A stretch of 64,000 nt of DNA from an uncultured Candidatus Saccharibacteria bacterium (GCA_964370865.1 CAYJKF010000003.1:7735-71734); one strand, 5' to 3'. Numbered from the stretch's first letter, positions 7,815 to 63,393 are shown. Made by a program: numbers and translations. Notes: generated by a model not told the origin, from the sequence alone.

Positions 7815-8044
7815 AAGTAATAACACTAAAAATACTTGGAATGCACTGTACAGCTTGTGCTATGAATATTGATTTTGATTTAGAAGACTTAGACGGAGTT
7901 AAAAATTCAACAACAAACTATGCCAAACAAACATGTGAAGTTGAATTTGATGAAAGTCTTATTACAGTTGATCAACTACAAGAACAGATCAAAAAAATAG
8001 GTTACGATTCAGAGGTTTTCTCCACCACTACTATTTCTTCTTAA
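7811..8044 (+). CDS. copZ: HMA-domain copper chaperone
   Basis: [20 protein letters not shown] (GMxCxxC). The ATG overlaps the upstream stop (ATGA). The ORF track gives a longer form from 7772. Confidence 0.85.
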   Translation: MKVITLKILGMHCTACAMNIDFDLEDLDGVKNSTTNYAKQTCEVEFDESLITVDQLQEQIKKIGYDSEVFSTTTISS

Positions 8045-9413
8045 TATTTATCTTTAAATCTCTTAGTTGAATTTCAGTAACTTCACTTGGAGCATTCATT
8101 ACTGAGGTCTGACCATTTCCTGTCATTGGAAATGCCTGAACTTCTCGTAAATATTTCTCACCTGTAAGATTCATAATGCAACGCTCTACTCCAATAGCTA
8201 TACCACCATGTGGAGGCGTTCCAAATTGAAAGGCTTCAATCATATGACCGACGCTTTCCATCATTTCATCTTTTGAGTAACCCATTATTTTGTAAGTGGC
8301 TTCTAATATTTCAGATTTGTGAGCTCTAATACTACCTCCACCTGATTCATATCCATTACAAACTAAGTCATATTGAGTTGTTAATATTTGATCGATATTC
8401 TCACCTTTCATATGCCAGTCTAAATGTTCTGGAATAGGCATCGAAAATGGATTATGACTGAATGTCCACTTTCCATCCGATGTCTTTTCGAAAAAAGGAA
8501 ATTCAATAACCCAAGCGTAGGAGAGTACTCCGTCTTCTTTTTCTTGCTCAGTTCTGAGGTCAAATTTATCTGCCCCATACTTATCCATAGCATCTTTATA
8601 TGTAATTCTTGGGAATGGTTTTTCTTTTAACTTAAATCCCATACTTTCAACAACGGTAATCATCATTTCCTCAACAGTATTCATTACATCATTCATATCG
8701 ACAAATGACATTTCTAAATCGATTTGAGTATGTTCAAATCCTCTATCTGCCCTTAAATCTTCATCTCTAAGAGCCCTAGCTATTTGAAAATACCTCTCAA
8801 AACCAGCAGTCATTAATAATTGTTTATATTGTTGCGGTGACTGGGGGAGTGCATAGAATTTTCCGGGTTGGAGTCTTGAAGGAACTATAAAATCTCGTGA
8901 ACCTTCTGGAGTTGATTTCGTTAATAATGGAGTTTCAATTTCAACAAAATCCTTAGAAAATAAAGCTTCACGTGCCTTTTGAACAAAGTCACTTCTAAGT
9001 CTTATATTTTTTTGTAATCTCTGGGTTCTAAGATCTAAGTATCTATATTTTAAACGTGTGTTCTCCTCAATATTTGCAGTATCTTTACTAATTTCAAATG
9101 GGGGAGTTTTTGATTCGTTTAATATGGTTAATTGAGTGGCTTCTAACTCAACGGTCCCAGTTTCAATTTCTGTATTTATCATTGACTGAGGTCTTGCCTT
9201 AACAAGTCCTTCTATTTCAATAACGAATTCATCTCTAAGGGCTTTAGCTTGTTCAACGATTTCGCCTGCAAATACTACTTGAAGAAGTCCACTTCTGTCT
9301 TTAAGGTCCAAAAAAATAATTTTTCCATGTCCTCTTACAGAATTAACCCATCCTTTAACGAGTACGGTTTCTCCTACTTTTGACATGGTTTCTTTTATAA
9401 TAGTGCGGTTCAT
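8031..9413 (-). CDS. aspS: Aspartyl-tRNA synthetase, short form (460 aa, no GAD insertion domain)
   Basis: N-terminal OB fold. Class II motif 2 signature FYALPQSPQQYKQLLM...FERYFQIARALRDEDLRADRGFEHTQIDLEMSF matches AspRS. Motif 3 is GGIAIGVER. Confidence 0.9.
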   Translation of the reverse strand: MNRTIIKETMSKVGETVLVKGWVNSVRGHGKIIFLDLKDRSGLLQVVFAGEIVEQAKALRDEFVIEIEGLVKARPQSMINTEIETGTVELEATQLTILNESKTPPFEISKDTANIEENTRLKYRYLDLRTQRLQKNIRLRSDFVQKAREALFSKDFVEIETPLLTKSTPEGSRDFIVPSRLQPGKFYALPQSPQQYKQLLMTAGFERYFQIARALRDEDLRADRGFEHTQIDLEMSFVDMNDVMNTVEEMMITVVESMGFKLKEKPFPRITYKDAMDKYGADKFDLRTEQEKEDGVLSYAWVIEFPFFEKTSDGKWTFSHNPFSMPIPEHLDWHMKGENIDQILTTQYDLVCNGYESGGGSIRAHKSEILEATYKIMGYSKDEMMESVGHMIEAFQFGTPPHGGIAIGVERCIMNLTGEKYLREVQAFPMTGNGQTSVMNAPSEVTEIQLRDLKINIKKK

Positions 9414-19296: not shown

Positions 19297-22200
19297 CTAC
19301 TTAAATTCTACTACTCTATCACGACGAAAGGTTTTGTTAGTCCCCGAAAAACTATCGTATGCTGAGAAATAAGTATCGTTAAACTCAATCAGCGATAATA
19401 ACCGCCAATACTTCGCACTACCAGCCTTAGTAGATTGATAGCGGATATTTATGTTTTTAGAAACACGATCCCCCAAATATTCGCCAAATGCGTCTTGATT
19501 AACTTCACGCGCACCGACACTAAATCCCTTATTTACTGAGGAGTTGGGCTTCTGAACTTTTGTCGTGGAGGTCCCATTAACATCGTGTACGTTATCTACT
19601 TCTTCGTCAGAGAAATTAGTGATATACATTTCTTTTGGGGCATCTTCAGGAGCGATTGTTTCTTTTTCTAATTCCTTAACTACATCCGTCTTGCTGATCA
19701 TGGATTCGTAATCGAAATACTCCTTTATGTAATCAATTAGAGCTTTTTCCTCTCCCGGTTGGTCGCTTATCCAATCGAAATACGATATACGATAGAAATT
19801 CCAGCCAGCCGCTTCTAGGACACCCTGGCGCTCCCAGTCGCTCTGAATATATACTTGACCGTCTCCTCCTTCGAAATGTGTAGGGCCGTCACATTCAATG
19901 GCTAACTTTTTGCCATTATGAGATACCGTTATATCAATCCTAAAACCTAGTGATTCAGTTTGTGTTTCTATTGTGTAATCGTTAGGATCTAATTCTTTAG
20001 CCAAGAAGCTATATATATTCTCTTCAAAACCCGAATCAAACTGTTGTGCAGATTTGATGTGTCGGCGAGAAACAATTCCAAACTTATCAATATATTCCAA
20101 GTACTTTTTAATCCAGATACCATCCGGCCATAGCTCTGTTGCAATCGATGTAACGGTATGGACTTGTAATCTCGCACGACTAAACGCAACATTCACTCGC
20201 CCTGCCGCGATATCTTTACGAATCTCACCTCCTTCTCCTGTTAGAGCTATATAACGCCTCTTATCGCTGGGGTCTTTGATGACGAAAGAGTAGATTACTA
20301 TATCTCTTTCATCTCCTTGAATCCCATCAATAATAGACACCTTTATGTTTTCATCAGAAATAGTTTTACGAATCAACTCCGCCTGTTCATTGAAGAAGGT
20401 TAAAATAGCAATAGTTTTATCTTTTAAAGCCGCATCAATCTTTATCTCCTCTAATATTTGCTGAATTTTCCTTACTTCTGCGATATTGGTTTTATCGGAA
20501 GTTTCTTCTAGTTCGTTTGGAGCTACTAAATGGGTTAATAAAATGCGTCCTGTATTTTTGTAAGGCACAATATTATCGTTTATCGCTTCGAGATTACGAC
20601 CTATCGGTTCATAAAATGACTGATTAGAGAAACCTATCAGCTCTTTGGGAGAACGATAGTGGTACTTAAGTGTTTTGGTTTTAAAACCATTTAAATGGGC
20701 GATGTCCATAACAGATTTAACGGTGTCTTCTTCTGCTTTGATTTGGTAGACATCAGGAATCTTGTGCTTTTTGGCAATCGCTTTCAATTGATCATTAGAC
20801 TTAAACATAATATTATCGTCTCGCATTTGTAATGTATCCCCAAAGAAAATAGTGTGTTTAGCACGGAACATAGAAGGAAATGCGTATGCAAAGTTGCATT
20901 GAGATGCCTCATCAATAATCACATAATCAAATGCGTTCATTTCTAAAGGTACAATTCGACTTACATCATCCAAACTCATCATCCAAATCGGAAGTACTTT
21001 AGTCATTGCCTTGAAATTATCTTCGTTATGTTTAAGCCTATCAAATGTTTTATTGGCTTTTTTACTTTTTGTTAGACTTCTAGCAACTTGTGCAAGAGTC
21101 GCTTTCAAAGATTTGTCGTTATTCGCTTCCCCGATTCTAGTTAAGATACGATTTCGGACATAATTAGTAGTATTAGTTCTGTAAAATTTTCTTATATCCT
21201 TTATTTCGCGATTTAATTCATTTGCCGAATATAATGACACCTCGTTAATCTGTTCAGAAATCTTAGTATACCGAGTTAAATCACTAAAGACCTGCTCCTC
21301 ACCTCCATTTTCTATAATAATCTTTTTAATATTTGTGAATGCCGTTGCGGGTATATTTTTACTCTGTAATAAATCCTGTACCAACGCGCGACTACGAGCG
21401 ATTGCCTTAATTTGACTGGTATAATTAAAATATTCCACAAGACTATCGAGTAGTTGTAAACGTGCTGACTTAGTGTTGTCTGAGAACAGTATTCTCTCAA
21501 GCTCAATATAAATTTCCTGAAGTATAGTTCGGCAGTATTTCTTTAAAGCATTATGTAGTTTTGTGTTATTAACTCTAATACCAAACCAACTGGATCGCTC
21601 AGGCATCTTAGACTTAAAATAGGTTTGAATATCTGTTATTGAATCGATGGTCGACTGGTAATTAATTTCAAGTGACTTAAACTTGGTGTCCAGAGCATTT
21701 ATTAATTTGCCGTGGACGTTCTCTGTATCTTTGATCTTTGACACCATCTTCGCAATGAATTTTTCCTGTTCCAATACTTGGTCATACCATTCACGACTGA
21801 TTCCGTAGGTATACAATGGTTCAAGATAATCCAGTTTTCTACGCTCAACGTATAATGTATATATATATCTTTCATTCTCGATATTTTTATCAAATATATT
21901 GGATCGGTCGGCGAGTAAGGCCAGAGGCTCTTTTAAGTCACCAACTTTACTTTTTTGGAATTCTCGATTTAAAGCTTGAAGGGTAATTGCTGCGCTATCC
22001 TTTTCGTCAGATTCATTATACATTTTTGAAGTCTTGTCTGGTATGTAACCAAATAAGAATGGAATATCTAATCCTTTCAGCTTATCCTTTACTCCACGAA
22101 TGGCTTGATCCTTTTGACTTGCAAAAAGTACGCGTTTACCTGTTGCTGCAAAATGAACTAACAAATTGGCAATTGTCTGTGACTTACCTGTACCTGGAGG

Positions 22201-23181
22201 ACCTTCAACAATTACTGCTTTATTTGAAGTGATTCCTAATACTTTTAATTGATACTTATCGTAGTCAAAGGGGAAGAATATTTCAGTACTTCCGTCTTCC
22301 GAAACATGCTGTTCAATTGTCATATCCTCATCTGAAACCCAACTTCCAAGAGACGTTTTAATTAAATCCGTGTCATCAATAGCTGCGATTGCTTTAAGGT
22401 CCTCCGCCAAGAAATAATTTGTCTTGTTGGTAATGCAAACAATACTAAATTCGAAAGAAGGAATAAGGGTAATTGACTTTGCATCGGCTCTATCAAGCTG
22501 CGTTCTTATTATTGCCCACAGTTCCTCAATGAACTCATCTTCAAGAGGCAAAATTGTTCTTCCTTCTGATTCTGCAGCCGCTATAAACGTAAATATCTCA
22601 TCATAGTATTGCTGCGGTAAGTAGTTCTTCAGTGGACCACATAGTATTTCAATATAATTGTCGGGCAGTTCAAGAATGACATTAACGCCAACCGCGGTGT
22701 ATTTGAGATTAATCGCAGCTACCGGTAACTGTATAAGGGGTGCTTCATATTTTTCGTATTCTTCGCTGTAATCGGCCTCTAAAATTCGTCGGGATTCAAA
22801 GGACACAAAACCGGTTTGAAGAACAACTCTTTTAGTGTACTCATCTGTTTTTATCTTAGTATCAATCTCTTGGATTTGATTTAAGAGTTCTCGGTCACGT
22901 GCAATACGAGCCTCTGCTTTACGCTGTTCCTCACTTTTGTCATCTTCCGGGGTATTGGGGTCAAAGTGACTATCTAATGATATTACTAGAGAAAGAGTGA
23001 TGCTAGCCATATCATTCTCAAAGATCAGTTCGGAAATTGGTAGCAAGTTAACATCTATTTTATCGGTTTTAACTGGCCTACTCCTCGGACCACTGCTTGA
23101 AATCAAACCCACATAGTCGAGTCCATAATTAGCTAATTGGCGAATTGATATTGGTATTTTTGACATACTATATAGAAGCAA
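19297..23181 (-). CDS. Large Upf1/DNA2-like SF1 helicase (AAA_11/AAA_12 type) with an N-terminal about 330-aa unknown (DUF4011-like) region and a C-terminal DUF559/Vsr-like endonuclease domain
   Basis: Walker A VIVEGPPGTGKSQTI, Walker B VIIDEASQ, motif V IDGIQGDERDIVIYSFV, motif VI RVNVAFSRAR. C-terminus ...LAIECDGPTHF...DWERQGVLEAAGWNFYRISYFDW matches the DUF559 core. Confidence 0.8.
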   Translation of the reverse strand: MLLYSMSKIPISIRQLANYGLDYVGLISSSGPRSRPVKTDKIDVNLLPISELIFENDMASITLSLVISLDSHFDPNTPEDDKSEEQRKAEARIARDRELLNQIQEIDTKIKTDEYTKRVVLQTGFVSFESRRILEADYSEEYEKYEAPLIQLPVAAINLKYTAVGVNVILELPDNYIEILCGPLKNYLPQQYYDEIFTFIAAAESEGRTILPLEDEFIEELWAIIRTQLDRADAKSITLIPSFEFSIVCITNKTNYFLAEDLKAIAAIDDTDLIKTSLGSWVSDEDMTIEQHVSEDGSTEIFFPFDYDKYQLKVLGITSNKAVIVEGPPGTGKSQTIANLLVHFAATGKRVLFASQKDQAIRGVKDKLKGLDIPFLFGYIPDKTSKMYNESDEKDSAAITLQALNREFQKSKVGDLKEPLALLADRSNIFDKNIENERYIYTLYVERRKLDYLEPLYTYGISREWYDQVLEQEKFIAKMVSKIKDTENVHGKLINALDTKFKSLEINYQSTIDSITDIQTYFKSKMPERSSWFGIRVNNTKLHNALKKYCRTILQEIYIELERILFSDNTKSARLQLLDSLVEYFNYTSQIKAIARSRALVQDLLQSKNIPATAFTNIKKIIIENGGEEQVFSDLTRYTKISEQINEVSLYSANELNREIKDIRKFYRTNTTNYVRNRILTRIGEANNDKSLKATLAQVARSLTKSKKANKTFDRLKHNEDNFKAMTKVLPIWMMSLDDVSRIVPLEMNAFDYVIIDEASQCNFAYAFPSMFRAKHTIFFGDTLQMRDDNIMFKSNDQLKAIAKKHKIPDVYQIKAEEDTVKSVMDIAHLNGFKTKTLKYHYRSPKELIGFSNQSFYEPIGRNLEAINDNIVPYKNTGRILLTHLVAPNELEETSDKTNIAEVRKIQQILEEIKIDAALKDKTIAILTFFNEQAELIRKTISDENIKVSIIDGIQGDERDIVIYSFVIKDPSDKRRYIALTGEGGEIRKDIAAGRVNVAFSRARLQVHTVTSIATELWPDGIWIKKYLEYIDKFGIVSRRHIKSAQQFDSGFEENIYSFLAKELDPNDYTIETQTESLGFRIDITVSHNGKKLAIECDGPTHFEGGDGQVYIQSDWERQGVLEAAGWNFYRISYFDWISDQPGEEKALIDYIKEYFDYESMISKTDVVKELEKETIAPEDAPKEMYITNFSDEEVDNVHDVNGTSTTKVQKPNSSVNKGFSVGAREVNQDAFGEYLGDRVSKNINIRYQSTKAGSAKYWRLLSLIEFNDTYFSAYDSFSGTNKTFRRDRVVEFK

Positions 23182-23238: not shown

Positions 23239-23874
23239 ATGTTTAGTCTTTCTACTACCAATACCGAGATAAAAGGAGAAATTGGCTATTTCAAACTTCA
23301 GAATTGGTGGCTGTCGAGCTTTACTCAAAAAGAACGAGACCGTATTGAAGAGATTTTTCACCCGATGGGTTCAAATTCAAACGACAAATCTCTTACAGAA
23401 TATACGATTCGTTGGACTTCTCAGACTGCAACTGGATTTCTTCAATCACTTGCGAGTTGGTTTAATAATCCGCAAGACAGAGAAATTGCGAAAAAGATAA
23501 TCGCGAAAGCCGAGGAATTAGCTCCCCTAAGCGGAGATATTCTCGACCAACATTTTACACTACAACAAAAGATGCAGATTTACTACCCTGAACGAGAAAC
23601 AAATCCATTGGCACTAGAAAAATCTATATCAGCTTGCAAAGAACAAATTGCTTTGGCTTCAAAAGCTTCAAAAGCCTTTCTGAAAGAATATCCCAATCAA
23701 CCCTTGCCAGTTCATGCAGGTTACTCTAAGCTCAGAATTATCCTTGAGAAGCAAAAGAAATATGATGAGGCAATAGAGCTTTGTTTAGAAGCAAAAGTTC
23801 AAGGTTGGAATGGTGACTGGGATAAACAGATAGAAACTCTCAAAAAGAAAAAAGAAAAACTTTCACACAGTTAG
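23239..23874 (+). CDS. Hypothetical protein
   Basis: ORF only. Lys-rich C-terminus. Confidence 0.35.
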   Translation: MFSLSTTNTEIKGEIGYFKLQNWWLSSFTQKERDRIEEIFHPMGSNSNDKSLTEYTIRWTSQTATGFLQSLASWFNNPQDREIAKKIIAKAEELAPLSGDILDQHFTLQQKMQIYYPERETNPLALEKSISACKEQIALASKASKAFLKEYPNQPLPVHAGYSKLRIILEKQKKYDEAIELCLEAKVQGWNGDWDKQIETLKKKKEKLSHS

Positions 23875-23899: not shown

Positions 23900-24349
23900 C
23901 TAGTACTTGAACTGATTTTTCGCATCTTCCCTTTTTGTACCGAATTCTTCCTCCATCATTTTCAGAAATTTATTATATACATTGTCAGCCTGCAAGTTGC
24001 CTTCTTCTGTAATAAAAACATGTAAGTCTTCATTACTAGCAATTACTTGTGTCTGCCTTGGAAGCCCATCTACATACGCCCACACCAACTTAGTGGCTGA
24101 AATATCACCATTCAAAGCCCTATCTACAATCTTTTTCACTAGCTTCTCTTTACGACTTAAACCTGTCTCACTATCAAGCTCATCCAAATACTCGCGGACA
24201 CAATCAGCAATTGTCTGACCTTTCAATGGCCTGCCTTTAGGATTACCTGAGACACCTTTTGTAAACGGCCTACCAATCACTCTGCTGTTATTCTCCTGTT
24301 TATCAGCAATTTCCATTAGCTTAATTATATACCAAGAAATGTCTATCAA
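23900..24349 (-). CDS. Phage/plasmid-associated small protein with a GNPxGRP motif (DUF5681-like)
   Basis: VSGNPKGRPLKGQ motif, recalled as common in phage/plasmid small proteins. Start uncertain. Confidence 0.4.
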   Translation of the reverse strand: MIDISWYIIKLMEIADKQENNSRVIGRPFTKGVSGNPKGRPLKGQTIADCVREYLDELDSETGLSRKEKLVKKIVDRALNGDISATKLVWAYVDGLPRQTQVIASNEDLHVFITEEGNLQADNVYNKFLKMMEEEFGTKREDAKNQFKY

Positions 24350-24391: not shown

Positions 24392-27079
24392 TTGTGCAAT
24401 AATAAAAATATTCAGTATTTCAACTATAATCTAGGAATGGAAGCGGATAAATTATTATTCTTAGCAAAATTGCGTAAAATTGCCGAACAAAGAGGTGGGC
24501 TATGTCTCTCAAATAGCTATTATAGTGCAAAAACATCCATGTTATGGCAATGTAGAACTGGACATCAATGGTATGCAATTCCAGATTCAATTCGAAGAGG
24601 ATCATGGTGTCCTTACTGTTCCGGTAAACATCAGAGTATAAAAGATATGGAAGAGATTGCCGCCAAAAGAAATGGTAAATGTTTATCCTCTCATTTCGAT
24701 AAGGCGAAGACAAAACTATTATGGGAGTGTAACAAAGGGCATCAGTGGTATGCAACTCCAGATAAAGTTAAAAGGGGATCATGGTGTCCTCAATGCATTG
24801 GTAGAGGTAAGACGATTAATGATATGAAACAAGTAGCTGAATTGAATGGAGGAGTATGTCTATCCACAGAACTCATCAATTTGAATACTAAGCTGTTATG
24901 GAAATGCAAACACGGACATATATGGGAGGCAAGTGGCACTTCTGTATATACCAATGGTAATTGGTGTGCTAAATGTGGTTATAAAAAAGTAGCTAAGCAG
25001 AAAATAAAGCATACCCTATCAGAAGCTAAACAAATAGCTACAGAAAGGGGGGGTTATTGCGTAAGTAAAAAGTATATTTCATTTAACGCAAAATTATCTT
25101 GGAAGTGTCAAAATGGACATCTCTGGAAAGCTTCCTTTGGTAATATTCTTAAAGGAAGTTGGTGCCCAATATGTTCTTCTCATCGAGGTGAGAAAATATC
25201 TCGATTAATTTTAGAAAAATTATTTGGGCGAGAATTTCCCAAATCATATCCTAAGTGGTTAACAAGTAAGTCTCATACCCAACTAGAACTAGATGGATAC
25301 AACGACCAACTCAAAATTGGACTAGAATATCAGGGACAGTTGCATTTCAATAACATTGACCACTTTTATAATACTGATGAAGAGTTTCAGAACCGCCAAG
25401 AAACTGATAGACTTAAACGCAAATTGTGTCGAAAACACAACGTAAAATTATTGGAAATTCCATATACAATCGACTACGACAAAATTGAAAGCTACATTCG
25501 TATATGGTTAGTTGAAAATAAAATTCCACAAGATACAATTAATCCCCACAAAATAGATATTACTCCCTATGAAATATATTCAGCTACAGAAATGGATCAA
25601 CTAAAAGAAACTATAAGAAATCGTGGAGGCAATATAAATATTCAACAATATACCGGATCAGTAGGACGTATAGAAGTAATATGCAAAAATAACCACCGTT
25701 GGGAAACTACACCTACAAGTATAAAGTCTGGTAGGTGGTGCCCATACTGTTTAGGGAGATATAAAAGTATAGACGATATGCAAACCTTAGCATTACGAAA
25801 TGAAGGTTTATGTTTATCTGAAAAATATATAAACGGAATTACCCCACTTAAGTGGAAGTGCAAGGCCGGACACATATGGTATGCAAAGCCAAGTAACATT
25901 ATATTTGGAAAATGGTGTCCAAGATGCGTTGGGCAAAATAAAACAATACTTGATATGGTTACTCTAGCAAAAAAATTTGGAGGCAAGTGTCTTTCTCCAA
26001 TTTATATAAATGTAAAAACTCCACTTCAATGGGAATGCAGTAATGGTCATGTATGGGAGGATACACCCGATGCAATAATCCAAGGAAAACGTTGCCCATA
26101 TTGTAATCGGCAGTATTATACTATCGTCGAGGCTAAAAAGCTTGCAACAACTAAAAAGGGGGAGTGTTTATCTACTACAGATTATAAAGGGAAAACTAAT
26201 CTTCTTTGGAAATGCAATAAAGATCATAGTTGGAATGCCTCTCCGTTTGTTATCGAATCAGGAAAATGGTGTCCAGTATGTGCGAAAGAGAAGCGAATTA
26301 CTATTAATAAGGCAAGGAAGTTAGCAGAAAGTAGAGGTGGGGCATGTATTTCAGATCTCTATGTAAACTCGTTGACTCCATTATTATGGAAGTGTGCAAC
26401 AGGCCACGAATGGAAGAGCACATATCAGAACATTCGAAAGGGGAATTGGTGTCCGTATTGTTCAAAAAATAGAAAGATCACGAAGGATGTTATAGATGAT
26501 TTTATCAAACCTAGAGGTGGCATATGCCTGTCGAATGGCCCATTCAAATCTAAGATGGATCTTCAATGGATGTGTAAATATGGCCACAAATGGTCTACAC
26601 AGTATACTAATATACAACGAGGGCATTGGTGTCCTATATGTGCAAAGCAAACATCAATCCAAATTTCTGATATTAAGAAATTTGCTAATAGAAAGCATGG
26701 AGATTGCTTATCTACGTCTTATAAAAACAACTCTCAATTATTGACTTGGTCTTGTGAACAAGGACACGTTTGGAAAGCAAGTTATTCAAATGTTAGTCAA
26801 GGTACATGGTGTCCATATTGCCGAGGGAAATATAAAACAATTAAAGATATGCAAGAACTCGCAAAGCCTAAAGGTGGTAAATGTTTATCGAGTGTATATA
26901 TAAGCGCAAAAACCAAACTAACATGGGAATGTAAATATGGGCATATTTGGGAAGCTACACCTGATAGTATCATAAGTAAACATACATGGTGTCCAATCTG
27001 CAAGAGTCAACGCTTTAAACTTACACCTGAGATAGATAAGATTAGTTTGGAAGCAACTAATGATACACTTGCATCATAA
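24392..27079 (+). CDS. Protein with 12 tandem Cys/Trp/His zinc-ribbon-like repeats (DUF4379 / 'probable zinc-ribbon'-like). After repeat 4 the array is interrupted by a DUF559/Vsr-like endonuclease core.
   Basis: Repeats of about 58 aa matching GGxCLSxxYxxxxTxLxWxCxxGHxWxAxPxxIxxGxWCPxC, counted directly. Insert contains LELDGY...LEYQGQLH...DRLKRKLCRKHNVKLLEI, which resembles iEvDG..H...D.R...L...G.vlRf of DUF559. Confidence 0.7.
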   Translation: MCNNKNIQYFNYNLGMEADKLLFLAKLRKIAEQRGGLCLSNSYYSAKTSMLWQCRTGHQWYAIPDSIRRGSWCPYCSGKHQSIKDMEEIAAKRNGKCLSSHFDKAKTKLLWECNKGHQWYATPDKVKRGSWCPQCIGRGKTINDMKQVAELNGGVCLSTELINLNTKLLWKCKHGHIWEASGTSVYTNGNWCAKCGYKKVAKQKIKHTLSEAKQIATERGGYCVSKKYISFNAKLSWKCQNGHLWKASFGNILKGSWCPICSSHRGEKISRLILEKLFGREFPKSYPKWLTSKSHTQLELDGYNDQLKIGLEYQGQLHFNNIDHFYNTDEEFQNRQETDRLKRKLCRKHNVKLLEIPYTIDYDKIESYIRIWLVENKIPQDTINPHKIDITPYEIYSATEMDQLKETIRNRGGNINIQQYTGSVGRIEVICKNNHRWETTPTSIKSGRWCPYCLGRYKSIDDMQTLALRNEGLCLSEKYINGITPLKWKCKAGHIWYAKPSNIIFGKWCPRCVGQNKTILDMVTLAKKFGGKCLSPIYINVKTPLQWECSNGHVWEDTPDAIIQGKRCPYCNRQYYTIVEAKKLATTKKGECLSTTDYKGKTNLLWKCNKDHSWNASPFVIESGKWCPVCAKEKRITINKARKLAESRGGACISDLYVNSLTPLLWKCATGHEWKSTYQNIRKGNWCPYCSKNRKITKDVIDDFIKPRGGICLSNGPFKSKMDLQWMCKYGHKWSTQYTNIQRGHWCPICAKQTSIQISDIKKFANRKHGDCLSTSYKNNSQLLTWSCEQGHVWKASYSNVSQGTWCPYCRGKYKTIKDMQELAKPKGGKCLSSVYISAKTKLTWECKYGHIWEATPDSIISKHTWCPICKSQRFKLTPEIDKISLEATNDTLAS
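24452..27010 (+). repeat. Intragenic tandem coding repeats, about 174-bp period (4 copies, about 420-bp interruption, 8 copies)
   Basis: Repeated protein units produce periodic DNA. These are not CRISPR: there are no short identical repeats or spacers, and the region is coding. Confidence 0.7.
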
Positions 27080-27097
27080 TATCATCGATTAATTAGC

Positions 27098-27733
27098 ATG
27101 TATTATTCTAATAAATTTATCAAAGAATATTTGCATAATGATATTCAAAAATCTATTGAAAACGATGTTAAAACGGCGATTAAAGGTTACTCAGAACTCT
27201 GGATTAAGGAAACACGCGAAGCTGGTTTTTTCGCAATACCAAGGTTACTCTTCCCAGAAATAGACGGACTAGGATCGTATATTACAGGAAACTCAAATAC
27301 TACTACGATAAATATAAAAAGTTATTTGAGTATGGTAATGTCGCAAATTGATGATAACTACAAGAAATACGCTGGTTTTATAACAATTATCTTCAGACAC
27401 GGATTGCTACATCAACATGCTCCAAAAAAATTTCGTTACAACGGGAAGACAATTGGTTGGGCAATTCAAGTTGGCTCACCTAATTTACCAATATCTGCTC
27501 TCCGAAAATCCCACCTAATTTTTAGTGGTTCTCATCTATGGATACATGCAAATGTTTTTTGTGATGATTTAATCAAATCAATTGACCTGTTCGAACCATT
27601 AGTTATCCAGAAATATAGGGAACATTTTATAAAATCTTACCGCGAGCAAAATCGCAAACTCTCCATACATGACTCAATAAGACCGAATGTGATAGAACGG
27701 GATGATTTTAATTTTCTCAAAGACTTAAAATAA
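27098..27733 (+). CDS. Hypothetical protein
   Basis: ORF only. Confidence 0.35.
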   Translation: MYYSNKFIKEYLHNDIQKSIENDVKTAIKGYSELWIKETREAGFFAIPRLLFPEIDGLGSYITGNSNTTTINIKSYLSMVMSQIDDNYKKYAGFITIIFRHGLLHQHAPKKFRYNGKTIGWAIQVGSPNLPISALRKSHLIFSGSHLWIHANVFCDDLIKSIDLFEPLVIQKYREHFIKSYREQNRKLSIHDSIRPNVIERDDFNFLKDLK

Positions 27734-31876: not shown

Positions 31877-33658
31877 TTGGGTATAACCCTCAAAAGTTGT
31901 GCATTCACAACCAGTTCGGCTATCTTAGTCATGAAACAAATTAAACCAACACAACCAACCAAATATATTATCTACTGTCGTAAAAGTAGTGAGGAAGAAG
32001 ACCGACAAATACTCAGTCTAGAAGCACAAAAAAGAGAACTAGAAGAATTTGCACAAAAATCTAACTTAAATGTTATAGATACACTCACTGAATCACAAAG
32101 CGCATTTAAAACAGGACGACCAATATTTAGCACTCTTCTCTCTAGAATTCAGAAAGGTGAAGCAAATGGAGTCATCTGTTGGCAACCAAATCGTATAAGT
32201 AGGAACCCAAAAGATGGTGGCGAATTTATTTATATGATGGATCTTGGTTTCATCAAAGAGCTGAGAACTCCATACAAGTCATTTGTGAACTCTGCTGATG
32301 ATAAATTCTTTCTCAACCTTGAATTTGGAATTGCAAAAAAAGATTCTGACGATAAATCCGAAAATGTAAAAAGAGGAAACAGACAAAAAATATTAAATGG
32401 AGACATTCCGGGATGTGCTCCACAAGGATATCTGAATGTAACTGATCCGATCACAAAAAGAAAGTATGTCGATATTGACCCAAGTCGTTTTCCTTTGATA
32501 CAAAAAGCCATACGACTTATTCTTTACGAAAGCAAAACTCCAATGCAAGCAATGGAAATATTAAACAATGAATGGGGGTATAGATCACGACAGACGCTAA
32601 AAATGGGTAATAAGAAAATGTCACCGAGCACATGGTATAACCTACTCAACAATCAATTTTACTATGGCAAAATACTAAGAATCGACACAGAAACAATAGG
32701 AAATCACCCACCAATGATAACCGAAGATGAATACAATCGAGTCCAGATTCTTCTTGGGAATAGAGGAAGACCAACCGTAAAAAAAGTCGGTTTTTATGCT
32801 AAAGGAATAATAAAATGTGGAGAATGTGGAGGAAATCTTACGGCTCATGATAAATGGCAAATAATATGTCCTGTTTGCAAAAATAAATTTCACAAATCAA
32901 TTGACAGAAAAGAATGCCCTATTTGCTCTACTGCAATCGCTAATATGAAGGATCCCAAATTACTATATTATGTTTACTATTCTTGTGTAAATAATAATCA
33001 TGGGAAATGCAAACAAGGATCATTAACTGAAACCACTCTAGAAAATACTGTAATGGAAAAACTAAGCAAGATTAGACTTAAAGATACCTACAGAGACTGG
33101 GCAATAAAATATTTAAATGAAATTGCAGATGATGACATCGAAGTGTATCAAAAAGGAACTGAAAATCTGGAAAAGAGGAAAACGGAAATAGATAAAACAT
33201 TAGATAATTTACTTAAAGTATTTATATCTCCAATTAATACAGATAAAGCAATTATGTCGGATCTTCAATATATAAATCAAAAAGAAAGACTCACAAATGA
33301 GCTGAAAGAAATTGGAGAGGATGTATCAAAGGCAGAAAAATACCATAGGAATTGGAGAGATGAGATAATAAAGAAATTCAACTTCGCACATGACGCACCT
33401 AAGAGATTTGAAACAGCAGATACAAATGAAAAAGCGACCATACTATCTAGTATAGGTTTGAACCTGACTGTACTTGATAGAAAACTGCACATTCAAGGGG
33501 ATCCAATCTTCTTCCTGATCGAAGAAGGTATAGAAAAATCAAAAGTGATAGAAGATAAGTTAGAACCTGTGAATATGCTTACAGTTAGTGAACAATCGGA
33601 GTGTATCGAGGAGCTTCATCAGACTTGGCTGCCCAACTTGGATTCGAACCAAGATTGA
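31877..33658 (+). CDS. Large serine recombinase (resolvase/invertase catalytic domain, recombinase domain, zinc-ribbon, coiled coil). Likely start is MKQIKPT near 31931.
   Basis: Catalytic-Ser N-terminal domain YIIYCRKSSEEE...GVICWQPNRISRN. Cys pairs CPVC / CPIC. Long coiled-coil C-terminus. 3' end overlaps tRNA-Gln antisense. Confidence 0.85.
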   Translation: MGITLKSCAFTTSSAILVMKQIKPTQPTKYIIYCRKSSEEEDRQILSLEAQKRELEEFAQKSNLNVIDTLTESQSAFKTGRPIFSTLLSRIQKGEANGVICWQPNRISRNPKDGGEFIYMMDLGFIKELRTPYKSFVNSADDKFFLNLEFGIAKKDSDDKSENVKRGNRQKILNGDIPGCAPQGYLNVTDPITKRKYVDIDPSRFPLIQKAIRLILYESKTPMQAMEILNNEWGYRSRQTLKMGNKKMSPSTWYNLLNNQFYYGKILRIDTETIGNHPPMITEDEYNRVQILLGNRGRPTVKKVGFYAKGIIKCGECGGNLTAHDKWQIICPVCKNKFHKSIDRKECPICSTAIANMKDPKLLYYVYYSCVNNNHGKCKQGSLTETTLENTVMEKLSKIRLKDTYRDWAIKYLNEIADDDIEVYQKGTENLEKRKTEIDKTLDNLLKVFISPINTDKAIMSDLQYINQKERLTNELKEIGEDVSKAEKYHRNWRDEIIKKFNFAHDAPKRFETADTNEKATILSSIGLNLTVLDRKLHIQGDPIFFLIEEGIEKSKVIEDKLEPVNMLTVSEQSECIEELHQTWLPNLDSNQD

Positions 33659-33699
33659 CGGCTTCAAAGGCCGCTGTCCTACCGTTAGACGATCGGGCA
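33626..33699 (-). tRNA. tRNA-Gln (UUG)
   Basis: Cloverleaf folded by hand: acceptor UGCCCGA/UUGGGCA, anticodon loop CUUUGAA, T-loop TTCGAAT, discriminator G and CCA encoded. Confidence 0.85.
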
Positions 33700-53938: not shown

Positions 53939-54015
53939 TGGTCGGGGAGACAGGACTCGAACCTGTGACCTCTTCGTCCCAAACGAAGCGCGCTAGCCAA
54001 CTGCGCTACACCCCG
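53939..54015 (-). tRNA. tRNA-Pro (UGG); U6:U67 mismatch in the acceptor stem
   Basis: Hand-folded cloverleaf: D-stem GCGC/GCGC, anticodon loop UUUGGGA, T-loop TTCGAGT, CCA encoded. Confidence 0.75.
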
Positions 54016-54339
54016 AAAATCTTGTATCTACTTAATTGGCAATCCTATAGTTTTACCGACGTTCTTTAGTACGCCAACCACAATTGACAGGACGAGTTTA
54101 CAAAAATAGAAAAAAACCTTTAGAATTCGAGACAGAACAAATGCTGCATACTGTTCAGCCTGGTTTTTCTTAACATCCATATCATACTGGTTTTGTACGA
54201 AGTTGTCTTGCATTATGAAATTATACGTTAAATGTAGATTTTAAGCATCATATACGTTTATAATATATATGCGTTACAATAACAAAAACGGTCAGTTTGT
54301 ATGTTGTGTCTAGAAATACCCACAACTGGTGCCTTTTAT

Positions 54340-54425
54340 GCCGCGGTGGCGGAATGGTAGACGCGCTGGACTTAAAATCCAGTTCCTTCACCGGAGTGAG
54401 AGTTCGAGTCTCTCCCGCGGCACCA
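54340..54425 (+). tRNA. tRNA-Leu (UAA), long variable arm
   Basis: Acceptor GCCGCGG/CCGCGGC, anticodon loop CUUAAAA, T-loop TTCGAGT, CCA encoded. Confidence 0.85.
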
Positions 54426-54437
54426 AGGCATGGATTT

Positions 54438-54514
54438 GCCTCTGTAGCTCAATTGGATAGAGCGTCGGTCTTCGGAACCGCAGGTTGGGGGTTCAAATCC
54501 TCTCGGAGGCACCA
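54438..54514 (+). tRNA. tRNA-Arg (UCG)
   Basis: Acceptor GCCTCTG/CGGAGGC (one G-U), anticodon loop CUUCGGA, T-loop TTCAAAT, CCA encoded. Confidence 0.75.
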
Positions 54515-54531
54515 TAATATACATACCATCC

Positions 54532-54607
54532 GGGTGCATAGCTCAATTGGCAGAGCAACTGGCTCTTAACTAGTAGGTTGCAGGTTCAAGCCCTGCTGCA
54601 CCCACCA
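54532..54607 (+). tRNA. tRNA-Lys (CUU)
   Basis: Acceptor GGGTGCA/TGCACCC, anticodon loop CUCUUAA, T-loop TTCAAGC, CCA encoded. Confidence 0.85.
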
Positions 54608-57357: not shown

Positions 57358-57432
57358 GCGGGTATCGTATAGTGGCTATTATACTTCCTTGCCAAGGAAG
57401 AGATACGGGTCCGATTCCCGTTACCCGCTCCA
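57358..57432 (+). tRNA. tRNA-Gly (GCC)
   Basis: Acceptor GCGGGTA/TACCCGC, anticodon loop UUGCCAA, CCA encoded. Weak D-stem. Confidence 0.8.
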
Positions 57433-60507: not shown

Positions 60508-60573
60508 TTTATATATCTTTGCGGAAATCGATTAAGCGTTAAACGCTGACGAATACCCAGAGTGTACCCATGA

Positions 60574-60648
60574 GCGGGTATCGTATAATGGCTATTATGT
60601 CACCCTTCCAAGGTGAAGACGCGAGTTCGACTCTCGCTACCCGCTCCA
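60574..60648 (+). tRNA. tRNA-Gly (UCC)
   Basis: Acceptor GCGGGTA/TACCCGC, anticodon loop CUUCCAA, T-loop TTCGACT, CCA encoded. Confidence 0.8.
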
Positions 60649-60656
60649 TAAAAAAA

Positions 60657-61022
60657 ATGAATAAATATACATTAATTGGTTCAATAACATTTCTTATCGC
60701 ATTGAGTGAAATAGCTTTTTTACTCTGCTTATGGGTTTTTGTAATGCCAAAAATGTTTGCTATTTATGATTCTTTCAAAGTAGAAATTTCGTATTGGCCA
60801 TTAACACTTGGAACTGTATTATTAAGTTTTCTAGGACTTGGAGGACTCTTTGTAGCTTATAAACTTTTTTCAAAAGATCAAAATAATAAAAATATATACT
60901 TTAACCTTGGAATAATACAGACGATGCTTGTGTTTGTATTGGTAGGTATATTTGCAGCCTTTGTCGTTCACTCAGCGATTTCTCCTATCTATACACTTTC
61001 CACTGTTCTTGAACCTAAATAG
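60657..61022 (+). CDS. Small integral membrane protein, hypothetical (start MNKYTLIG; the longer track ORF would overlap the tRNA)
   Basis: 3-4 TM helices. Confidence 0.4.
   Translation: MNKYTLIGSITFLIALSEIAFLLCLWVFVMPKMFAIYDSFKVEISYWPLTLGTVLLSFLGLGGLFVAYKLFSKDQNNKNIYFNLGIIQTMLVFVLVGIFAAFVVHSAISPIYTLSTVLEPK

Positions 61023-63316: not shown

Positions 63317-63393
<77 letters not shown>

Follow-up and report, generated by a model that had tools for sequence, protein, structure and literature searches.

A probable Vsr-like endonuclease embedded in a twelve-module zinc-finger array, encoded in a putative mobile island of a Patescibacteria chromosome

Results

Coding sequence of the endonuclease gene

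We analyzed a stretch of DNA of 64,000 nucleotides (nt), hereafter the window, from an uncultured Candidatus Saccharibacteria bacterium (GCA_964370865.1, CAYJKF010000003.1:7735-71734). It contains a gene, referred to as the endonuclease gene, whose product consists of twelve zinc-finger repeats with a nuclease-like insert between repeats 4 and 5 (Table 1). The initial annotation had described an open reading frame (ORF) of 895 amino acids (aa); its coordinates were exact, and its residue numbering is used throughout. The product in the public gene calls, 100% identical (P0002) and present on at least 24 contigs, comprised 880 aa, and an exact-sequence look-up showed that the record contained this form and not the 895-aa form starting with TTG. 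The sequence at 24425-24439, TATAATCTAGGAATG, holds a perfect -10 hexamer just 6 nt ahead of the ATG, followed by AGGA. The consensus promoter scan did not call this hexamer, which is a possible but weak -10 box. Because the hexamer lies just 5' of the ATG at 24437, this codon was taken as the probable start; the 880-aa protein is the likelier product, and the mRNA may be leaderless or carry a very short leader. No second copy of the array was detected in the six-frame translation of the window with a hidden Markov model (HMM) of the repeats.

Zinc-finger repeats

The count of twelve tandem repeats in the initial annotation was confirmed by three methods. Pfam family PF14311 (DUF4379, "probable treble-clef zinc finger") matched the protein in 12 stretches (E=2.5e-57, 191.4 bits versus a cut-off of 24.5 bits), an HMM made from the repeats detected 12 domains in the translated window (independent E-values of 1e-24 to 1e-28 each), and the pattern C-x3-H-x14/15-C-x2-C was present in 12 of the 12 repeats. 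PF14311, which had been suggested for this search together with the name zinc_ribbon_15, thus matched, under its name DUF4379. The W-x-C-x-x-G-H-x-W and C-P-x-C motifs of DUF4379, with the putative zinc ligands C, H, C, and C, were both found. The spacing of the repeats was 59–60 aa, with two exceptions: it rose to 66 aa from repeat 3 to repeat 4 and to 192 aa where the insert intervenes. When 118 repeats from the endonuclease and its homologues were aligned, one glycine and the C, H, C, and C residues were invariant, and an additional cysteine (in GGxCLS), one serine, one tyrosine, and three tryptophans were conserved in at least 90%.

The repeats had also been described as identical and the gene as recombination-prone, which the data contradicted. 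Mean pairwise identity between repeats was 32% for protein and 44% for DNA, the longest exact DNA match between them was 15 nt, Tandem Repeats Finder failed to detect the 177-nt array, and the 90%-identity cluster of the protein was a single sequence, found on 24 contigs. Nor did programmable targeting find support: variable positions amounted to about 25 sites per repeat with no visible two-residue code, and positional orthology with the best homologues was absent, the repeats not being collinear.

To model the fold, repeat 2 was used as the representative. Its AlphaFold model, with a predicted local distance difference test (pLDDT) score of 84, consisted of an N-terminal helix, a β-hairpin with C-x3-H in the turn, then a short helix and finally a helix that begins with the CPxC knuckle. 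Between the treble-clef and ribbon folds considered initially, this predicted arrangement looks like a treble clef. A Foldseek search of the model against the Protein Data Bank (PDB) found nothing significant, the zinc-binding fold not being confirmed by fold search, and the repeat profile had no significant match among PDB sequences. The nearest solved structures, both weak matches, were 6yxx_E2 and 6sga_Fd, which are mitoribosome assembly factors of Trypanosoma brucei; one of them is annotated as a DUF4379-domain protein.

The calculated isoelectric points were 9.6 and 9.4 for the two arrays and 6.6 for the central nuclease domain, and the whole protein contains 141 lysine and arginine versus 76 aspartate and glutamate residues. 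Judged by composition, the basic arrays would fit with nucleic-acid binding. The Pfam model of CapR (PF21817) did not match the endonuclease at E≤1, and it matched the same repeats in five of the six homologues scanned. The latter result indicated that the repeat module is related to CapR at the profile level, with its own sequence below the threshold. CapR, the protein on which that Pfam domain was founded, comes from the Vibrio cholerae phage satellite PLE; it is a repressor derived from the DNA-binding domain of a homing endonuclease and needs its four cysteines to bind DNA sequence-specifically (PMC8096241). Modules of the CapR/DUF723/DUF4379 type are common in multiple copies in T5orf172 homing endonucleases of phages (PMC10448857). 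Both have a related small Cys/His zinc-finger DNA-binding module, often in several copies, although CapR has one module and no nuclease, and the nuclease of T5orf172 enzymes belongs to the GIY-YIG superfamily and is not Vsr-like.

Nuclease core

The insert of approximately 140 aa reported between repeats 4 and 5 was found at aa 262–403 (about 142 aa) and contains the strings first quoted, ELDGY, EYQGQLH, and DRLKRKLCRKHNVKLLEI. Scans with Pfam, NCBIfam, and PADLOC assigned no nuclease family to the whole protein (Pfam E≤1) or to the insert alone (E≤10). With the insert alone, the only Pfam matches at E≤10 were DUF5889 (0.068) and Phage_ProQ_C_like (0.083); faint matches to Redoxin, zf-Di19, and Jiv90 were dismissed as CxxC artefacts, with no matching stretch. 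Alignment of the family profile with E. coli Vsr by hhalign gave a probability of 0.2%, and no significant match turned up among PDB sequences when the insert, its profile, or a phage homologue was the query, 3r3p not being retrieved at E≤10.

An AlphaFold model of the core based on the family alignment had a pLDDT of 89 and a predicted template modeling score of 0.78. The order of its elements, α-β-β-α-β-α, is that of restriction-endonuclease-like folds, in agreement with a Vsr-type fold. Six residues, E267, D301, E312, H318, D339, and K342, were invariant in alignments of 55–190 homologues, as was anticipated for the catalytic residues of the insert, and C346 was the only conserved cysteine within the core. 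In I-Bth0305I, the prototype EDxHD homing endonuclease (PDB 3R3P), the composite motif E170, D196, H213, and D222 corresponds to E25, D51, H69, and D97 of Vsr (PMC3239194). A motif of the form E...D...x...H...D was present in the insert as E267, D301, E312, H318, and D339, located on the expected secondary structure elements. The distance of 11 residues from D301 to E312 equals that from D51 to F62 in Vsr, and the distance of 17 residues from D301 to H318 equals that from D196 to H213 in I-Bth0305I. The endonuclease and I-Bth0305I therefore have the same invariant E, D, acidic, H, and D positions at the same spacings, yet there was no match between them at the sequence level and no detectable sequence homology to the EDxHD family. 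Published work likewise calls the relationship to that family distant ("outgroup"; PMC12350094). I-Bth0305I further differs in that its gene resides within a group I intron of recA, and in that it acts as a dimer and binds DNA through N-terminal NUMOD and helix-turn-helix elements, whereas the endonuclease carries DUF4379 repeats on both sides of its nuclease.

The designation of the core as DUF559-like was upheld for fold and motif; no HMM match to DUF559 or any other Pfam nuclease accompanied it, and by this measure the insert would lie outside both the DUF559 and the Vsr families. The DUF559, MTES_1575, and RAP-type domains of the Vsr superfamily (e.g., PDB 3HRL) usually form the C-terminal part of helicases or occur on their own, and not within zinc-finger arrays. 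As a separate observation, RAP-domain matches to the nuclease core and the DUF4379 mitoribosome factors mean that each half of the architecture has eukaryotic relatives associated with RNA in organelles. In the linker that follows the core, at 25526-25567, a 20-nt sequence is imperfectly duplicated in tandem (2 copies, 81% match), which is probably insignificant.

Two other functions were weighed against these results. E. coli Vsr (PDB 1CW0) is a single-domain repair nickase of 156 aa, and a protein of this type would act on T:G mismatches at methylated cytosines. Such a role is extremely improbable for the endonuclease: there was neither a Vsr match in Pfam nor a profile match to E. coli Vsr, the Vsr zinc site (C346 being the sole conserved cysteine of the core) and the mismatch-intercalating residues were not evident, and Vsr has no DNA-binding arrays. 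A partner cytosine methyltransferase was not identified among the scanned ORFs around the gene, and only one of the 135 homologue neighbours examined was a C5 methylase. Alternatively, the protein could be a domesticated, catalytically silent DNA-binding protein such as a repressor of the island in which it lies. CapR provides a precedent for domestication of the module (PMC8096241), and twelve DNA-binding modules alone could serve as a regulator. However, CapR lost its nuclease domain altogether, whereas that of the endonuclease was kept with a confidently predicted fold and every invariant residue intact, and we regard silent DNA binding as very unlikely.

Relatives of the endonuclease

An exhaustive phmmer search with the insert retrieved 11,277 cluster representatives when the limit was E≤1e-3 and 3,745 when it was E≤1e-10, while a word-indexed homologue search with the same query had returned only one relative. 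Together with the lack of a Pfam match, this indicated that the nuclease domain, as judged from sequence comparison, forms a large family without a curated model. There were more than 1000 full-length homologues, and in 116 of the 120 best of these the nuclease lay between two repeat arrays. The best full-length homologues had 8 to 16 repeats (median, 10), and a sample drawn by the nuclease domain alone had 0 to 13 (median, 4); therefore, the 12 repeats of the endonuclease are at the upper end of the range and not unique. The family was scattered over many bacterial and archaeal phyla, with 416 confirmed matches to one peptide pattern in species-representative genomes. Relatives also occurred on viral contigs, including metagenome-assembled genomes (MAGs) of giant viruses (249 matches), and on plasmids (100 records). 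An apparent multi-copy signal at 10 places on a Bacillus mycoides plasmid was discarded as an apparent artefact, in which one repeat-rich gene is split by linearization: the first 50 kb of that record have a single annotated zinc-ribbon gene, which borders on the start of the record, and the best match is situated at its end.

Among phage proteins, the endonuclease matched PHROG 559 (E=1.1e-115) and 681 (E=1e-98), as well as 9084 ("homing endonuclease," E=2.7e-8) and 7140 ("intron encoded nuclease," E=1.7e-6). A tblastn search with the insert matched 134 phage records. These included the "intron-encoded protein B" (IepB) of phage Twort, located within an intron of the terminase large-subunit gene, and the "group I intron-associated VSR homing endonuclease" (ORF171) of Enterococcus phage 113, which splits the terminase gene. 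The nuclease HMM recognized both (8e-23 for IepB and 1e-23 for ORF171), and the signature CPxC-GE...D...EYQGxQH...DxxK was common to the two proteins and the endonuclease. ORF171 contained CapR/DUF4379 repeats above the Pfam cut-offs, whereas the DUF4379 match of IepB stayed below the threshold (E=0.034, 14.8 bits versus 24.5 bits). The short phage form was found in 587 phage records. A combination of three to five CapR/DUF4379/DUF723-like repeats with an EDxHD/Vsr-like domain has been described as a large unrecognized outgroup of homing endonucleases (PMC12350094).

Both the profile matches and the shared architecture place the endonuclease with the phage homing endonucleases that combine CapR repeats with a Vsr-like domain (PHROG 559, 681, 9084, and 7140), a family best known from enzymes encoded within phage introns. 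The phage enzymes, among them IepB, ORF171, and the homing endonuclease genes in group II introns (PMC12350094), have the same type of zinc-finger module and nuclease, with 30–47% identity to the endonuclease over 100–150 aa. Those examined were approximately 310–330 aa long, had about three repeats at the N-terminus and the nuclease at the C-terminus, and were encoded in introns splitting essential genes. In contrast, the endonuclease has 880 aa, 12 repeats distributed on both sides of the nuclease, and a free-standing gene in a cellular island. With its 607 positions, the profile of PHROG 559 reaches past the nuclease, which suggested that two-sided forms probably exist in phages as well. 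The link of the repeats to phage and giant-virus homing-type nucleases, stated in the initial annotation, was borne out by these matches, the viral contigs, and published work (PMC12350094, PMC5513546). For the giant viruses, the "putative restriction endonuclease" of Marseilleviridae (Lausannevirus; Insectomime ISTM_159), compared here by its description, carries DUF4379 in four copies together with a domain of the restriction-endonuclease type (PMC5513546). It has fewer repeats and belongs to viruses of eukaryotes, and giant-virus MAG contigs carry relatives of the nuclease domain studied here.

These relationships also bear on whether the protein is directed to RNA, with arrays that bind structured RNA and a Vsr/RAP-like core that binds or cuts it, like the RAP-domain proteins of eukaryotic organelles. 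The fold matches of the repeat are too weak to carry weight in this respect. The complete EDxHD-type catalytic set is invariant, the relatives detectable by sequence are annotated as DNA homing endonucleases in phage introns, and CapR binds DNA (PMC8096241), all of which make an RNA target quite improbable. Even when added together, the RNA-directed, silent DNA-binding, and Vsr-like repair roles retain only a small probability.

Genomic context

The window is part of a bacterial chromosome and carries DnaK, an aspartyl-tRNA synthetase, PolX, and CopA. Its DnaK showed 76–77% identity to proteins named as candidate division WWE3 and 66–69% to those of other Patescibacteria. Mostly unannotated ORFs surround the endonuclease gene, which lies between a DUF5681 gene and a 211-aa ORF. 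One end of the region is formed by a large serine recombinase gene. Its 3' end runs into a tRNA-Gln gene of the other strand, and this overlap suggests that an island was integrated at tRNA-Gln. On another contig (L002), the recombinase version has 517 aa. Genes for an HTH_17/MerR-like and an HTH_36 protein were also found in the region. No meaningful att-type direct repeat of the tRNA-Gln end of at least 12 nt that would delimit the island was found in the window. The endonuclease gene looks like cargo of a mobile element integrated into a Patescibacteria (WWE3-like) chromosome.

Between the endonuclease gene and the helicase gene of Table 1 lie two genes whose products have only phage-family matches, to families of unknown function. 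The helicase gene places a second nuclease domain of the Vsr superfamily less than 5 kb from that of the endonuclease in the same island. On the other side, the downstream 211-aa ORF matched nothing in Pfam, PHROG, or PADLOC and was the sole member of its 90%-identity cluster; co-transcription with the endonuclease gene is possible. At 80 loci of homologues from diverse taxa, no recurrent neighbour family emerged from all-against-all BLAST or from counting the Pfam families among the 135 nearest neighbours. The commonest family occurred in 4 of the 135, the neighbours included housekeeping genes, and none of those in the window recurred. This conservation pattern indicated that the endonuclease probably works alone.

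The location in an island raised the question of a defence function, in which the island would keep the protein for cutting invading phage or plasmid DNA and not for its own copying. The helicase, 1.2 kb from the endonuclease gene, matched the PADLOC candidate defence system PDC-S37 (E=1e-71) as well as Hhe and MkoA/C. A Paenibacillus homologue is located in an integrase-bearing island, where its neighbours are an nSTAND3 NTPase of 1311 aa and proteins of the DUF2326 and HNH types, a Bacillus thuringiensis homologue also lies in an integrase-bearing island, and the patchy distribution of the family suits defence genes as much as selfish ones. However, the endonuclease itself gave only a chance-level PADLOC match (PtuB, E=0.013, without a matching stretch), the immediate neighbours at the 80 loci were not enriched for defence or integrase families, and the closest annotated relatives are intron-encoded phage genes, associated with offence or selfishness and not with host defence. 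We consider defence a possible function, although an unlikely one.

Elsewhere in the window, the aspartate--tRNA ligase (8031-9413, minus strand) has only about 460 aa, and its match to the bacterial model of 590 aa is divided into two stretches, with the central insertion domain seemingly missing. Seven further tRNA genes were found: a Pro, Leu, Arg, Lys cluster (53939-54607), Gly (57358-57432), Gly (60574-60648), and Val (63317-63393). Because the second tRNA-Gly gene falls inside the mechanically listed 150-aa ORF at 60570-61022, this ORF is probably not a gene.

Table 1. Features of the endonuclease gene and its surroundings, in window coordinates.
Feature	Position	Strand	Basis or remark
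Endonuclease coding sequence	24437-27079	+	880 aa from ATG, stop codon included; public gene calls, ATG position checked
Mechanical ORF of the endonuclease gene	24392-27079	+	895 aa from TTG; ORF list
TATAAT hexamer	24425-24430	+	6 nt 5' of the ATG, then AGGA; possible -10 box, weak; read from sequence
Zinc-finger repeat 1 (aa 27-76)	24470-24619	+	Pfam, repeat HMM, pattern scan
Zinc-finger repeat 2 (aa 86-135)	24647-24796	+	Used for modeling; repeat HMM, model, pattern scan
Zinc-finger repeat 3 (aa 146-195)	24827-24976	+	Knuckle CAKC, 1-aa insertion; repeat HMM, pattern scan
Zinc-finger repeat 4 (aa 212-261)	25025-25174	+	CPIC abuts the nuclease domain directly; repeat HMM, pattern scan
Vsr/EDxHD-like nuclease core (aa 262-378)	25175-25525	+	α-β-β-α-β-α order
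E267 codon	25190-25192	+	Invariant, helix 1; proposed equivalent of Vsr E25/I-Bth0305I E170, from spacing and secondary structure (PMC3239194)
D301 codon (ELDGY)	25292-25294	+	Invariant; proposed Mg2+ ligand, equivalent of Vsr D51/I-Bth0305I D196 (PMC3239194)
E312-Y-Q314 (EYQ)	25325-25333	+	E312 invariant, D301+11; conserved acidic position of EDxHD (Vsr F62; PMC3239194)
H318 codon	25343-25345	+	Invariant, D301+17; proposed general base, cf. I-Bth0305I H213 (PMC3239194)
D339-R-L-K342	25406-25417	+	D339 and K342 invariant, helix 2; D339 proposed equivalent of Vsr D97/I-Bth0305I D222
Linker from nuclease core to repeat 5 (aa 379-403)	25526-25600	+	Lower model confidence, pLDDT about 73
Zinc-finger repeat 5 (aa 404-453)	25601-25750	+	Most divergent, without the GGxCLS cysteine; repeat HMM, pattern scan
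Zinc-finger repeat 6 (aa 463-512)	25778-25927	+	Repeat HMM, pattern scan
Zinc-finger repeat 7 (aa 522-571)	25955-26104	+	Repeat HMM, pattern scan
Zinc-finger repeat 8 (aa 581-630)	26132-26281	+	Repeat HMM, pattern scan
Zinc-finger repeat 9 (aa 641-690)	26312-26461	+	Repeat HMM, pattern scan
Zinc-finger repeat 10 (aa 701-750)	26492-26641	+	Repeat HMM, pattern scan
Zinc-finger repeat 11 (aa 761-810)	26672-26821	+	Repeat HMM, pattern scan
Zinc-finger repeat 12 (aa 821-870)	26852-27001	+	1-aa insertion; repeat HMM, pattern scan
SF1 helicase (AAA_11/AAA_12) with C-terminal MTES_1575/RAP-type nuclease	19297-23181	-	1294 aa; 1.2 kb from the endonuclease gene
211-aa protein with weak TPR-like C-terminus	23239-23874	+	PHROG 22434; between helicase and endonuclease genes
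DUF5681 protein	23900-24316	-	E=4e-11; PHROG 26239; between helicase and endonuclease genes
211-aa ORF	27098-27733	+	18 nt past the endonuclease stop codon
Large serine recombinase (Resolvase and Zn_ribbon_recom)	31877-33658		593 aa; end of island
tRNA-Gln(ttg)	33626-33699	-	Overlapped by the recombinase 3' end by about 33 nt, opposite strand

Discussion

The computational analysis established the domain identities, the fold, the invariant residues, the homology to phage intron endonucleases, and the absence of conserved partners. From these results we propose, with a probability of roughly 0.6, that the product of this free-standing gene is a site-specific DNA endonuclease of the homing type, probably active and composed of CapR/DUF4379-type zinc-finger modules and a Vsr-like, EDxHD-related domain. 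According to this proposal, each of the 12 modules would fold around one Zn2+ through C-x3-H and C-x2-C, and the two basic arrays, with four N-terminal and eight C-terminal modules, would lie along the DNA and specify a long asymmetric recognition site. By analogy with Vsr and I-Bth0305I, the near-neutral central domain would cut a phosphodiester bond inside this site, with Mg2+ held by D301 and D339 and perhaps E312, H318 as the general base, and E267 and K342 assisting. Having one active site per chain, the enzyme would either nick DNA or, like I-Bth0305I, introduce a double-strand break as a dimer. Such a break would then promote copying of the gene into the cut alleles (homing) or destroy competing DNA.

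Several points weigh against a homing endonuclease. There was no match at the sequence level to Vsr, I-Bth0305I, or any PDB chain, and the residue equivalences to the two enzymes were derived from spacing and predicted secondary structure. The gene lies outside any intron or intein; Rfam detected no intron family in the window, and therefore the gene is considered free-standing. No allele lacking the gene was found, the context being the same in all 23 contigs read, and when metagenomes were scanned in search of such an allele, the downstream 211-aa gene proved to have no relatives there. The single active site may give only nicking, the defence-like features of the island neighbours also fit with a role in defence, and the literature searched contained no experimental characterization of the long two-sided members.

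A further possibility concerns the long two-sided arrays themselves, which comprise 8–16 modules in the full-length relatives examined and could represent a natural modular scaffold for reading DNA. If every treble-clef module touched a few base pairs, the number and order of the modules would set an asymmetric target of approximately 40–60 bp for a single embedded Vsr-type active site. Should the modules prove separable and their specificity predictable, they would offer a new engineerable DNA-targeting platform beside C2H2 zinc fingers and TALEs, with its own nickase or nuclease. We regard this idea as doubtful; a version with a simple code in particular is not favoured by the spread of variability within modules and their lack of collinearity.

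The domain combination and its interpretation as a homing endonuclease were already published in 2021–2025 and appear in phage annotations, and the present results do not overturn current knowledge. They provide a probable function, that of a site-specific Vsr-type endonuclease with modular zinc-finger targeting, for a very large set of proteins now labelled "zinc-ribbon domain-containing" or "hypothetical." This set comprises the full-length relatives and the approximately 11,000 nuclease-domain clusters, from bacteria, archaea, plasmids, phages, and giant viruses. In the small Patescibacteria chromosome, the gene is a marker of a putative mobile island. The long forms from cellular genomes, in which the nuclease is embedded between two arrays, could reveal how arrays of treble-clef fingers read long DNA sites.

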